A stretch of 64,000 nucleotides of DNA, taken from contig JABMPT010000005.1 of NCBI GenBank assembly GCA_013202845.1, positions 71,308 through 135,307 on the forward strand, written 5' to 3'. Position 1 is the first letter of the stretch; each line of letters starts with the position of its first letter. This document shows, one piece after another, positions 1 through 2,803 of the stretch. Source of the DNA: Candidatus Woesearchaeota archaeon. Its GTDB lineage: Archaea; Nanobdellota; Nanobdellia; Woesearchaeales; GCA-2686295. A program made the position numbers and the translations under genes. The notes below the pieces were generated by a model. It worked only from the letters and a program-made list of their open reading frames with translations, did not search any database and had not been told where the DNA came from.

Positions 1-192
1 AAGACAATGACTCACATAATTGCTTAATCTTTCTATGTTTGGAGACAAAGAAGCTGCTTGTAAAAAAACTCTTGTAGCAGATTCAACATTAATATCTCCA
101 TTAGGATTCCAATGGTTCCAAAGCTTTTCTATTTTTTCATCTAATTCTTTATTTGTATTTAAAAAAGGAAGAACAGTATCATGATAATCCAT
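1..192 (-). CDS. Partial ORF running off the left window edge. It starts at the ATG at 190-192, immediately after the stop of the Ppm-fusion gene. Function unknown; it could be the next step of a phosphonate pathway, but that is not supported by sequence.
   Basis: Manual translation of the minus strand gives MDYHDTVLPFLNTNKELDEKIEKLWNHWNPNGDINVESATRVFLQAASLSPNIERLSNYVSHCL... with no stop up to the window edge. It is co-directional and tightly packed with the upstream gene. It is not in the supplied ORF track because it is truncated. Confidence 0.3.
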   Translation of the reverse strand, partial: MDYHDTVLPFLNTNKELDEKIEKLWNHWNPNGDINVESATRVFLQAASLSPNIERLSNYVSHCL

Positions 193-1485
193 TTATTTCC
201 CTCCAGGAATCAATGTAAGAATATCTTTTATTGACATACAGTATTCCTGCGATGCTTCATAAGCCCTTTCATTCATAAGAATCGATTCTGCAGCCTTGAG
301 CATTGCCGGATATGCACTTCTCAACAAGTGATTTGCATAAATAACTACATTTACTCCTGCTTTCCTCAACTCCTCTTCATATATTTGGCTGTAGGTTGAA
401 GGTACAACCACTAATGGAACTTTCTTTTTGAATTTTGAAAAGTGTCTACAGAATTCTAAGATTTCTTTAGGTTCTTTTTCCTTGCTATGAATCATTAGTC
501 CATCTGCTCCTGCAGCTATATACGCCTGAGCTCTTTTCAAAGCATCCTTCATTCCTGCTTTCAGTATCAAGCTCTCAATTCTTGCTATTATCATAAAATC
601 TTCTGTCACTTGAGATTTTTTCCCTTCTGATATTTTGTATGCAAAACTCTTAATAGAATCTTGTTTTTGGTCTACTTCTGTTCCAAATAAAGAATTCTTT
701 TTTAAACCGATTTTATCTTCTATTATTATCGCTGAAATTCCCAATCTTTCCAATGTTTTAACAGTAAAAACAAAGTGCTCTGGTATCCCTCCTGTATCAC
801 CATCTACAATTATTGGTTTGGTTGTTGCTTCAACAATGTGATTTAGGGTATCCATTCTTTCAACCAATTCTATATCTGGTTTGCCCTTAGCAGTTGAATC
901 TGTCAGGCTACTAATCCAAACTCCATCAAACTCTTTAGTGTTATTATCTTTCAAGACCTTTGTACTTTCGACAATCAAACTACTAATGCCATTATGAGCT
1001 TCCATAAATCTAACCATATCTTTTACTTCTAAAAGACGTCTGAGTTTTCTCATTCTTATCTCAGGTGTTGTTCCAATATCATGTAATTCTTTATGCAATT
1101 GTGTAGAAGATATTCCTGGAGTATAAGGAATTTCAATTAGTTTGCCGCCCCATTCCTTCAGAGCGTTAATAACTCTTTGTCTTGTTTCCCTCTGCACTCC
1201 TGTTTTCCAGTCATTACCATGAATTACGTAGTCTGGTTTTATTTTCCTAAGGTTCGGAACATAATCCAATGTTTCTTGTGGCAACACTTTACTAACACCT
1301 TTTATATGTTCTATAATAAATTTTCTTTGATGATAGGTCAATGCAGGTAAACGTTTATAACTAGCAATAGCCTTATCTGTTAGAACACCCACTATTACTT
1401 CTCCATATTGCTTGGCTTGGTTAATAATATTCAAATGTCCGTGATGTATTAGATCTGCACTCATACCAACATATACTTTTTTCAT
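193..1485 (-). CDS. Bifunctional cytidylyltransferase (HxGH, GCT/CCT-like) fused to phosphoenolpyruvate mutase (Fom1-like architecture).
   Basis: The N-terminus [21 protein letters not shown] has an intact HxGH nucleotidyltransferase motif, and a later GISSTQL (RTxGISTT-like) motif is present. The C-terminal domain carries VDGDTGG and [15 protein letters not shown]. This EDK..KxNS pattern matches the PEP mutase active site (Lys/Asn/Ser) rather than the isocitrate-lyase KKCGH pattern. Length is 430 aa. Confidence 0.7.
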
Positions 1486-2030
1486 TTTTTATCATCTCCG
1501 CTGTATATTTTCAAGATTTGCCTCACCACTTTTTCAGGCAATAATTTCTCATAAGAATCAAGTTGAATGATTTCCCCATCGATTTGCTTGATAAACTTTG
1601 TTCCACCAGGTATTGTCTTCCAATTAGAGCCATAAATTAATATTATCTTCGAATCTTTGAATTGACTATGAATTTTCTTAAGGTTCTCAGTCGGATCCAG
1701 ACTGTTCTGAGACATAATCATATCAACACATCTAAGAGAAGAAATGATTGCGCTTCTCTCTTTTAAGTTGGCAATAGGTTTTCCTCGATAGGATTTTACT
1801 GCTTCATCACTTAAAACTCCACAAATATGAAGTTCTCCTAATTTATTCGCATTCTCAAGCAATTGCAATTGTCCATAGTTAAACAAGTCTCCAGTAGTAG
1901 AGGAGTATACAATTCTCTTTATCTTCTCTTTTTCAACACTAACAAGGTCTCCTTCCTTTATTCCAGAATTCTTTGGTATGGTCACACAGAGTTGACCATT
2001 GGATTTATTAAGCCAAACAATTTTCTTCAT
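1482..2030 (-). CDS. AbrB/SpoVT-like swapped-hairpin N-domain fused to a cytidylyltransferase-like domain with a degenerate HxGH motif (NYGQ). Possible pseudo-enzyme or regulator.
   Basis: N-terminus [22 protein letters not shown] resembles the AbrB/MazE fold. It is followed by [27 protein letters not shown], which aligns to G-T-F-D-x-x-H-x-G-H of GCT/CCT cytidylyltransferases with both His replaced. The RTEGIS motif is not recognisable. There is a 4-nt ATGA overlap with the downstream Ppm-fusion gene. Confidence 0.5.
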
Positions 2031-2080
2031 TTACTAGTGTTACTAGTATGATATTTATATATTTTTCCATTATGGAAGAA

Positions 2081-2803
2081 CTAAGATTTACCAATAGCAC
2101 CATCATCAGAAAAAGTAATCCAATTTTTTTGAGTAACACACCAATTTTTACCATAACGAAAAACAAGATAAGACTTTAAAGATCTGGGAACATTAAAAGA
2201 AACACCGTAAAAACTTAGAGAAGAAAAGTTCTTAAAATAATGTGCTGGGACAACCCAATTAATTTCCTCACAACCAAAAGGGCAAGAAACCTTGGAAATA
2301 AATTTTTTTATACTCGCCTTACAATCATTTGGGAATAAAAAAACCCAAAATAAAAGAAAATGCTTTATAAGGGTTGATAAATTAAAAAAGTTCCTTGAAC
2401 GAATACTATTATAATTAATAACTGAAAAAGTCCACCACCAAGCCTTAAAAAGCTTTCCAAAAACAGACTTGGTTGTTAAAAGACTTCTGAAAGCAACTCT
2501 TTTTCTAAGATAAAAAACAGACACATTAACAAGTATTTTCTTTTTTTCTAAAACAATTTTGTCTTTAAGAACATAAATCTGAAAACCTTTATTTCCAAGT
2601 TCCTTGAAAAGTTTGTTACTTGAATTAAAGTGTACTACTTCATGCGACCAAATACCTAAATCTATATCGTTATCCCAAGGAATAAACTTTTTATCTCGGA
2701 CAGCAGCAAGTAAGGTACCTGAATCCAACCAATAAGTAACATTGTGCTTTTTGAAAACTTCGTCCACCTCTTTCAACACTGCAGCAGCATTCTTCTCATT
2801 CAT
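2081..2803 (-). CDS. LicD-family phosphotransferase (phosphocholine/phosphonate-type transfer from a CDP/CMP-activated donor onto a glycan).
   Basis: [29 protein letters not shown] is the canonical LicD nucleotidyltransferase-fold motif. Confidence 0.7.
   Translation of the reverse strand: [240 protein letters not shown]

Follow-up and report, generated by a model that had tools for sequence, protein, structure and literature searches.

It has been shown that in the first steps of fosfomycin biosynthesis 2-hydroxyethylphosphonate (HEP) is activated as CMP-HEP, which is made by the cytidylyltransferase (CyTase) domain of Fom1 (PMC6697681). According to Rice et al. (2019), 23.6% of the phosphoenolpyruvate (PEP) mutases (Ppm) in RefSeq, a bacterial set, are fused to a PF01467 domain, LicD-like transferases occur beside phosphonate clusters, and a second nucleotidyltransferase lies one or two genes from Ppm in bacteria (PMC6697681). 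Li and Horsman (2022) assigned 8.5% of ppm neighbourhoods to the HEP branch, and their paper cites a HEP conjugate on the exopolysaccharide of the actinomycete Stackebrandtia nassauensis and, for the archaeon Nitrosopumilus maritimus, an adduct of methylphosphonate (PMC8942020). A PEP mutase-cytidylyltransferase fusion has also been described in the glycan region of an archaeal Borg (preprint 10.1101/2024.11.05.622173). Here we describe a locus of this kind in a stretch of 64,000 nucleotides (nt), called the window below, from a Candidatus Woesearchaeota archaeon (assembly GCA_013202845.1, contig JABMPT010000005.1, positions 71,308 to 135,307 of the forward strand). The window encodes a Fom1-type fusion of 430 amino acids (aa) and, two genes upstream, a LicD-family transferase. 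We consider it rather probable that this is an operon for the synthesis and CMP activation of HEP, placed within a surface-glycan and N-glycosylation island of a Woesearchaeote, and that LicD transfers the phosphonate to a surface glycan.

The system as such is already well described and widely annotated, and its pathway logic, the fusion and the partnership with LicD are known. An original prediction, made from the letters of the window, had called archaeal phosphonoglycans essentially uncharacterised. That overstated the novelty in view of the at least 561 species with a relative of the fusion, the existing annotation of the fusion, the survey in PMC6697681 and the precedents of Nitrosopumilus and the Borg. 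The only new points are the adjacency of aglB, an HD-type protein and a probable pseudo-cytidylyltransferase, all of which are described below.

The fusion gene and the predicted route to CMP-HEP

The flank to the left of the window was read from L001, an identical contig in a public assembly (Logan SRR28106079, 31.7 kb) that was found by exact-sequence look-up; the reverse complement of window positions 1-1485 and two further 3-kb stretches within positions 1-11300 match it exactly. The genes concerned are these (window coordinates unless L001 is named):

1..192, minus strand: first 64 codons of the gene for a 260-aa protein assigned to the HD superfamily; full gene at L001:11294-12076
193..1485, minus strand: Fom1-type bifunctional enzyme, 430 aa; both Pfam domains and TIGR02320 above their cutoffs
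1078-1485, minus strand: N-terminal domain of the fusion (aa 1-136), predicted HEP cytidylyltransferase from PF01467 and similarity to 5x3d
196-1050, minus strand: C-terminal domain of the fusion (aa 146-430), PEP mutase by PF13714, TIGR02320 and catalytic residues
1482..2030, minus strand: 182-aa stand-alone paralogue of the Fom1 CyTase domain, PF01467 at 35.5 bits
L001:12073-13209: phosphonopyruvate decarboxylase (Ppd), two genes after the fusion; TIGR03297 at 514.7 bits, cutoff 312.5
L001, gene after Ppd: iron alcohol dehydrogenase (Fe-ADH), 378 aa; best NCBIfam family TIGR03405 (phosphonate-associated Fe-ADH)

In the 430-aa protein the Pfam models PF01467 (CTP_transf_like) and PF13714 (PEP_mutase) match aa 9-130 at 66.1 bits (cutoff 21) and aa 148-403 at 191.4 bits (cutoff 31.5), respectively, and the NCBIfam equivalog TIGR02320 (PEP mutase, EC 5.4.2.9) reaches 394.4 bits, its cutoff being 319.55. 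The sister families in NCBIfam all remained far under their own cutoffs, with 130.6 bits for phosphonopyruvate hydrolase, 90.5 bits for methylisocitrate lyase (prpB) and 41.6 bits for carboxy-PEP mutase. The motif EDKxxxxxNS, which separates Ppm from the isocitrate-lyase family (PMC6697681), is matched at aa 256-265. When the fusion was aligned to the PEP mutase of Mytilus (1m1b), nine of nine residues were identical, namely the Mg2+ ligands, the Lys, Asn and Ser of the gating loop, Arg159 and His190; D58, D85, D87, E114 and K120 of the Mytilus enzyme correspond to D204, D228, D230, E256 and K262 of the fusion, and N122, S123, R159 and H190 to N264, S265, R302 and H333. The scores and motifs rule out methylisocitrate lyase, carboxy-PEP mutase and phosphonopyruvate hydrolase as identities of the C-terminal domain, and by all these sequence measures it is a true PEP mutase and not an isocitrate-lyase-type enzyme. 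In the N-terminal domain the catalytic HxGH is intact (HHGH, aa 14-17) and so is the C-terminal motif of the (R)TxGISxT type (YTPGISST, aa 121-128). The best PDB match of this domain is 5x3d, the HEP-CMP-bound structure of the CyTase domain of Fom1, with an E value of 1.8e-59 and 86 of 133 residues identical (65%). The 430-aa protein is thus, as judged from sequence, a Fom1-type bifunctional CyTase-PEP mutase, and from its similarity to Fom1 and from its Ppd and Fe-ADH neighbours the CyTase would be specific for HEP and CTP.

These results bear out most of what the original prediction had said of this gene. It had placed three open reading frames (ORFs) on the minus strand, at 193-1485, at 2081-2803 and, as a partial one, ending at 192, and all three are present; it had described the 430-aa product of 193-1485 as a cytidylyltransferase-PEP mutase fusion of Fom1-like architecture, with an intact HxGH and the Lys/Asn/Ser signature of PEP mutases, and the Pfam and TIGR02320 matches, the HHGH, the alignment of K262, N264 and S265 and the 65% identity to 5x3d all agree with this. 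It had also set a test of its own, that the C-terminal domain might prove nearer to methylisocitrate lyase or carboxy-PEP mutase and lack the triad; the domain is nearer to PEP mutase and the triad is kept.

Relatives of the fusion are common. A protein search returned at least 8000 of them at E <= 1e-20, and among the 120 matches listed the relatives are 69-82% identical and have the same two domains. The source names among those listed include Woesearchaeota, Nanoarchaeota, Patescibacteria, WOR-3, Ignavibacteria and Spirochaetes. When one genome per species was scanned, at least 561 species had a relative, and the existing JGI annotation of the fusion reads 'phosphoenolpyruvate phosphomutase / 2-hydroxyethylphosphonate cytidylyltransferase'. 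We also observed that the fusion of Woesearchaeota shares 73-74% identity with that of Patescibacteria, WOR-3 or Ignavibacteria, which is as close as this Woesearchaeote is to the Nanoarchaeota-labelled proteins.

On L001 the gene order is that of the 182-aa protein, the fusion, the 260-aa HD-type protein, Ppd and Fe-ADH, with gaps of 0 to -4 nt, and in a comparison of 81 loci with a related fusion the fusion is followed by Ppd in 78 and Fe-ADH is present in 67. The original prediction had expected the enzyme that drives the mutase reaction to lie just left of the window, and Ppd does lie there. Its proposal that the partial ORF at 1-192 might itself be Ppd did not hold; this ORF is the start of a 260-aa protein without thiamine pyrophosphate domains, and Ppd follows as the next gene. 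Extension of the contig to the left, as it had advised, yielded ppd (the Fom2 homologue) and Fe-ADH and yielded no AEP (2-aminoethylphosphonate) transaminase on L001. Among the annotated ORFs of the window and on L001 neither an AEP transaminase nor any class-V aminotransferase was found, and the only aminotransferase there is a DegT-type sugar enzyme. AEP was dropped as the first choice on this ground. Because an AEP transaminase was not found and both Ppd and Fe-ADH are present, the product is predicted to be HEP, activated as CMP-HEP. Of the CMP-activated '2-AEP or HEP-like' phosphonate that had been forecast, the HEP part thereby gains support from the Fe-ADH and the AEP part falls away.

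The route that we propose would begin with the C-terminal PEP mutase of the fusion converting PEP to phosphonopyruvate. Ppd, encoded two genes downstream, would decarboxylate phosphonopyruvate to phosphonoacetaldehyde and so pull the unfavourable equilibrium of the first step, and the N-terminal cytidylyltransferase would, as the fourth step, convert HEP and CTP to CMP-HEP; the identity of the enzymes for these three steps, and the gene order, are established at the level of sequence. The third step, from phosphonoacetaldehyde to HEP, would fall to the Fe-ADH as an enzyme of the PhpC/FomC type, as its family and the conserved synteny suggest.

The LicD gene and the possible acceptors of HEP

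The fusion and LicD genes belong to an array of co-directional genes with aglB at its head. From AglB through the methyltransferase-like protein, GT2, LicD, the 182-aa protein and the fusion to the HD gene, the successive spacings are -38, 90, 24, 50, -4 and 0 nt. The members upstream of the genes listed above are:

2081..2803, minus strand: LicD-family phosphotransferase, 240 aa; PF04991 at 65.5 bits, cutoff 22.6
2828..3766, minus strand: GT2 enzyme resembling polyprenyl-phosphate glycosyltransferases, 312 aa; PF00535 at 115.6 bits
3857..4414, minus strand: small class I methyltransferase-like protein, 185 aa (175 aa in the gene call on L001); Methyltransf_11 at 31 bits; overlaps the 3' end of aglB
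4377..7238, minus strand: AglB/STT3 oligosaccharyltransferase, 953 aa; PF02516 (STT3) at 173.5 bits and an STT3-PglB core domain

The LicD gene lies two genes upstream of the fusion on the same strand, and the assignment of 2081-2803 to the LicD family, which had been made earlier, is confirmed by the PF04991 score, the match being limited to aa 18-53. The region around its DxD (WDNDIDLGI) aligns to the catalytic domain of the fukutin-related protein (6kaj, E 6.9e-7), which is a CDP-ribitol-dependent transferase of the LicD family. A Kyte-Doolittle scan gave at most one weak hydrophobic segment in LicD. The same kind of scan gave eleven hydrophobic windows, some of them overlapping, in AglB, whose best NCBIfam family is archaeo_STT3. 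The GT2 enzyme has hydrophobic segments within aa 232-297, that is two C-terminal transmembrane helices as in polyprenyl-phosphate glycosyltransferases, and its best NCBIfam matches are ArnC-like (195 bits), PgfS and AglJ, all under their cutoffs.

A CMP-phosphonate is a structural analogue of a CDP-alcohol, and therefore transfer of the HEP-phosphonyl group by a LicD-type enzyme with release of CMP would be a natural next step. From its family and its place beside the fusion we propose LicD as the exit enzyme, which would move the HEP-phosphonyl from CMP-HEP to a hydroxyl of a glycoconjugate; it is this adjacency that points to CMP-HEP as the donor. The acceptor would probably be a sugar of a dolichol-linked surface glycan. 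The known behaviour of the pneumococcal LicD enzymes points to a lipid-linked glycan at the cytoplasmic face, and by analogy the LicD here is likely to act there too. The modified glycan would then be exported, and transfer to protein by the AglB of the same array is possible, as the adjacency of these genes hints. It is again the adjacency of aglB that weakly suggests an N-glycan as the acceptor.

The same route to CMP-HEP could end on a membrane lipid or glycolipid and give a phosphono-glycolipid or a phosphonolipid head group, which we judge unlikely. Over its full length (aa 4-227) LicD matches a single NCBIfam subfamily, Mf1, the glycolipid cholinephosphotransferase of Mycoplasma, but the 62 bits of this match are far under the cutoff of 225. 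Close DPANN loci pair the same core with a CDP-alcohol phosphatidyltransferase (clearly in L084, weakly in L083), an enzyme that is not found at this locus, and phosphonolipids or phosphonoglycans are the presumed products of about half of the bacterial phosphonate clusters (PMC8942020). The LicD gene here is, however, flanked by the GT2 gene, which resembles a Dol-P-sugar synthase, and by aglB within a large glycan island.

Several observations weigh against a HEP-bearing surface glycan made by LicD. PF01467-fused Ppm is also known in AEP clusters (PMC8942020), so the substrate of the CyTase is not guaranteed to be HEP. The Fe-ADH fails the cutoff of TIGR03405 with 188.9 against 423.7 bits and scores only marginally above AdhE (NCBIfam), and because it lies under this curated cutoff the case for HEP formation is built on synteny and on the similarity of the CyTase. 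Among the 81 loci the adjacency of aglB is unique to this contig, and only 11 of them have a LicD gene at 10 kb or less from the fusion; sister DPANN loci carry other exit enzymes, such as CDP-alcohol phosphatidyltransferases and sulfatase-family proteins. The spacer of 50 nt between LicD and the gene of the 182-aa protein (window 2031-2080) holds the TATA-like AAATATATAAATAT, about 25-35 nt upstream of the ATG of that gene, which may be an internal archaeal promoter, and LicD and the phosphonate genes may then be separate transcripts. With a genome G+C of 32%, AAATATATAAATAT can also occur by chance. To our knowledge, a compound with a carbon-phosphorus (C-P) bond has not been shown for any DPANN archaeon.

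The infrequency of LicD near the fusion, the possible promoter and the way in which the core acts as a mobile five-gene cassette beside different transferases would all fit a LicD unrelated to the phosphonate genes, which would move choline, glycerol or ribitol phosphate while CMP-HEP is used by an enzyme encoded elsewhere. We regard this as improbable. No cytidylyltransferase for CDP-choline, CDP-glycerol or CDP-ribitol is annotated among the scanned ORFs of the window, where the sole candidate, the 182-aa protein, is without its catalytic histidines, and the pairing of LicD with phosphonate genes recurs independently in the archaeal locus L067 and in the bacterial loci L010, L027, L031 and L072 and is also described in PMC6697681. 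The loci with both LicD and a fusion thus include an archaeal one and several bacterial phyla. The earlier statement that LicD is co-operonic with the fusion is kept in part: adjacency and direction are as stated, and a common operon is conjectural in view of the 50-nt spacer and its TATA-like element.

The genes that accompany the core at other DPANN loci are varied:

L005:6582-9375: weakly cupin-like 413-aa protein (possibly HEPD/MPnS-like) and a radical SAM/SPASM enzyme
L040:7240-9996: multi-pass membrane protein and a radical SAM/SPASM enzyme
L045:8566-9969: B12 radical SAM enzyme; best match the Sden_1168 P-methyltransferase family, 362 bits, under the cutoff of 575
L084:9339-10262 and 12612-13409: CDP-alcohol phosphatidyltransferase locus
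L082:15127-16662: sulfatase-family protein

Sulfatase- or phosphodiesterase-family proteins stand beside the core in L082 and in the P0068 locus. This variety of tailoring and exit genes suggests several different archaeal phosphonate end products, and because sister DPANN loci pair the core with different exit enzymes, the core behaves as a cassette serving different acceptors. A separate observation concerns L082, in which a 434-aa protein (L082:8647-9951) with a weak match to the PF14907 nucleotidyltransferase family and a thymidylate-kinase-like domain is encoded directly upstream of the HD, 182-aa and fusion genes. This pair of domains recalls the neighbourhood in which Ppm is flanked by thymidylate kinase and PF14907, which Li and Horsman called unusual (PMC8942020).

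Two accessory proteins of the phosphonate genes

The gene of the 182-aa protein, here called ct182, lies between LicD and the fusion and overlaps the start of the fusion by 4 nt; it was absent from the original prediction. Its family profile matches an ethanolamine-phosphate cytidylyltransferase (3elb, 1.8e-16) and Fom1 (5x3d, 5.8e-16), and 5x3d is also the best Foldseek match of its model (E 1.7e-9, TM 0.80). The search gave 378 homologues of about 180 aa, and every source name given was Woesearchaeota, Nanoarchaeota or 'archaeon'. The first 37 aa form an N-terminal extension that is almost invariant in the family and that AlphaFold2 left disordered or unmodelled; an AbrB/MazE-like domain in this extension was considered and rejected on sub-threshold matches (E 0.08-0.11). 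In the ct182 of the window the catalytic HxGH reads NYGQ and the C-terminal S-T reads L-P, while HxGH is retained in the consensus of the family. A count over the 120 nearest homologues gave HxGH in 62, NxGQ in 18, HxGQ in 12 and NxGH in 1, with the pattern unmatched in 27, and the N/Q state co-varies with loss of the C-terminal S-T (Thr). In L005, L008, L028, L082 and L084 the gene immediately precedes the fusion, and in L040 and L045 it is found upstream at a distance of up to about 3 kb. Judging by its motifs, the ct182 of the window is probably a pseudo-enzyme, and because it is a conserved protein without both catalytic histidines, it is most simply, and most likely, a non-catalytic partner or regulator. 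As for L028 (contig CAZTRD010000037.1), it is labelled Candidatus Saccharibacteria and carries the pair of ct182 and fusion, homologues of ct182 being otherwise archaeal by name; the pair is either a cross-domain transfer between DPANN and the candidate phyla radiation (CPR) or the sign of a mis-binned contig.

The start codon of the 260-aa protein abuts the stop codon of the fusion. No Pfam or NCBIfam family matched this protein, any HD model included, and its family profile gave only noise against the sequences of the PDB. The family is tiny: searches of 5.8e9 and 1.84e9 proteins gave 13 clusters and 27 representatives, respectively. An AlphaFold2 model built from an alignment of 12 sequences reached a pLDDT of 92.1 and a pTM of 0.90, and Foldseek against the PDB pointed in the HD direction, though weakly (E 0.2-1); as modelled, the protein has the helical fold of the HD superfamily. 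Three residues, H62, D103 and H148, do not vary across the aligned family, and H125, E126 and D184 are nearly invariant. The dyad is E102-D103 in the clade of the window and the canonical H-D in the most divergent members and in a 307-aa protein of L084, which hhalign relates to the family profile with a probability of 80.7% (E 1.3e-5). The protein keeps a six-residue pattern, H...(E/H)D...H...H...D, and may in this be akin to the binuclear phosphodiesterases HD-GYP, YqeK and PgpH and the oxygenases PhnZ and MIOX. It is unlike them in that its clade has Glu in place of the dyad His, that it matches no HD model of Pfam or NCBIfam, and that its tiny family is found next to Fom1-type genes. The gene sits between the fusion and Ppd on L001, on the opposite strand after the fusion in L043 and upstream of ct182 in L082, and in L084 the remote relative with the HD dyad occupies the slot between fusion and Ppd; a Fom1-type gene adjoins it in all five members for which the neighbourhood was read.

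We read this protein, from its conserved residues and its neighbours, as a divergent HD enzyme of the binuclear type that is tied to the HEP pathway. It would most likely be a metal-dependent phosphodiesterase with CMP-phosphonate or a related diester as its substrate, a role comparable to that of FomD in fosfomycin synthesis, and a PhnZ/MIOX-like oxygenase is possible. This protein and ct182 are the two lineage-specific accessory members of the module.

A FomD-like protein would also suit a pathway that ends in a diffusible small-molecule phosphonate, in which cytidylylation is transient as in fosfomycin synthesis and the HD protein hydrolyses the CMP-phosphonate after tailoring. The Fom1 architecture, the homologues of Fom2 (Ppd) and FomC (Fe-ADH) and a phosphodiesterase-like HD protein within the operon speak for such a product, as do the related loci with a B12 radical SAM enzyme resembling P-methyltransferases (L045) or with cupin and radical SAM genes (L005). 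At this locus, however, no Fom3-, Fom4-, HEPD- or MPnS-like tailoring enzyme was found, the only B12 radical SAM enzyme of the window is a generic one 31 kb away, and the genes lie in a glycan island beside a transferase. A diffusible phosphonate is for us very improbable, and transfer of HEP to a surface glycan by LicD is the reading that we retain.

A bolder form of the retained reading, which we think doubtful, would have DPANN archaea decorate AglB-dependent N-glycans or another surface glycan with HEP, an ED/HD binuclear metalloprotein edit the pool, and the dead cytidylyltransferase paralogue serve as a regulatory or channelling subunit, both of them with functions that are new. The ED/HD metalloprotein would then act either as a phosphodiesterase on CMP-phosphonate or as a PhnZ/MIOX-like oxygenase whose product is an additional derivative of HEP.

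The glycan island and comparison with described systems

About 40 kb around the operon form a glycan island with GT2, GT4 and GT-C enzymes, a carbamoyltransferase, a Wzx-like flippase, a nonulosonic-acid pathway with a NeuA-NeuB fusion, a WbuX/HisFH amidotransferase set, and a formyltransferase with folate-recycling enzymes. The features of the island and of the rest of the window are:

14555-27703, minus strand: nonulosonic-acid cluster (legionaminic or pseudaminic-like), with epimerase/dehydratase, Polysacc_synt_2 dehydratase, DegT aminotransferase and UDP-GlcNAc 2-epimerase
17774-21140, minus strand: formyltransferase with FolD, SHMT and 5-formyl-THF cyclo-ligase, within the nonulosonic-acid cluster
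22272-24032, minus strand: NeuA-NeuB fusion, within the nonulosonic-acid cluster
24019-25275, minus strand: WbuX amidotransferase, with a HisF/HisH fusion at 25276-26652
32709-34259, plus strand: generic B12-binding radical SAM enzyme, inside the glycan island, 31 kb from the operon
45762-46316, minus strand: cobalamin adenosyltransferase
46323-48896, minus strand: ribonucleotide reductase with ATP-cone, probably class II and B12-dependent
50683-51945 and 52240-53604: GT2 cellulose-synthase-like glycosyltransferases, beside the two ORFs that follow
53675-55087 and 55075-56553, minus strand: two overlapping ORFs of 470 and 492 aa, no Pfam match
57215-57613: Hjc Holliday-junction resolvase
58846-59490: tRNA-intron endonuclease
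60415-61455: FEN1/XPG
62366-63385: Trm5/TYW2

The formyltransferase group (17774-21140) hints at acetamidino and N-formyl modifications of sugars with a dedicated one-carbon supply. Three genes of the window are related to cobalamin (32709-34259, 45762-46316 and 46323-48896). For the first of these, homology to Fom3 or a P-methyltransferase is not supported by the scores of 134 against 600 bits for PhpK and 109 against 575 bits for Sden_1168, BchE scoring higher. The genes for Hjc, the tRNA-intron endonuclease, FEN1/XPG, Trm5/TYW2 and AglB confirm, by their sequence assignments, the archaeal origin of the window, and proteins identical to those encoded here bear the NCBI label 'Candidatus Woesearchaeota archaeon'. 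A tRNA scan of the window found none.

Our literature search found no paper on phosphonate synthesis in Woesearchaeota. If the reading that we favour is true, these ultra-small and host-dependent archaea would spend PEP and CTP on a surface coat of phosphatase-resistant C-P esters, which could shape attachment to the host, resistance to viruses and grazers and the cycling of phosphorus in sediments and groundwater. The bacterial scheme of surface tailoring by CMP-activated phosphonyl groups would in that case hold for DPANN archaea as well, with a physical link to the N-glycosylation machinery. Known biochemistry would be left unchanged by a HEP operon, and the parts that could yield novelty for little effort are the HD-fold family with its 27 representatives and the degenerate cytidylyltransferase family with its 378 homologues.

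The closest likeness is to fosfomycin biosynthesis. Fom1 of Streptomyces wedmorensis and the fusion share an N-terminal PF01467 cytidylyltransferase and a C-terminal PEP mutase, with the CyTase 65% identical over 133 residues, and with homologues of Fom2 (Ppd) and FomC (Fe-ADH) in the operon the same chemistry is expected as far as CMP-HEP. Neither the L001 stretch of 21 kb nor the part of the window around the operon contains Fom3, Fom4 or FomD, which sets the locus apart from a fosfomycin cluster. Unlike in the fosfomycin pathway, CMP-HEP is predicted here to be a donor for LicD and not a transient handle for methylation, and the host is an archaeon and the setting a glycan island. In the Pnt clusters of bacteria, too, a phosphonate is made, activated with CMP and moved to a glycan or lipid of the cell surface, as is predicted here. 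PntC of these clusters is a LicC-type PF12804 enzyme that prefers AEP, whereas both cytidylyltransferase-like domains here are of PF01467, not the PntC/MobA-like fold of PF12804, and the substrate is predicted to be HEP; moreover, the additional nucleotidyltransferase of this locus is a paralogue that has degenerated and bears a DPANN-specific N-terminal extension, and an HD-fold protein is added. The conjugates of S. nassauensis and Nitrosopumilus, as far as they are described where PMC8942020 cites them, likewise come from the HEP branch (Ppm, Ppd and a PhpC-type dehydrogenase) with an end product esterified to polysaccharide. By the same cited account Nitrosopumilus proceeds from HEP to methylphosphonate by way of MPnS, and at this locus no homologue of MPnS or HEPD was found. 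Nitrosopumilus is, on that account, a precedent for glycan-associated phosphonates in archaea.

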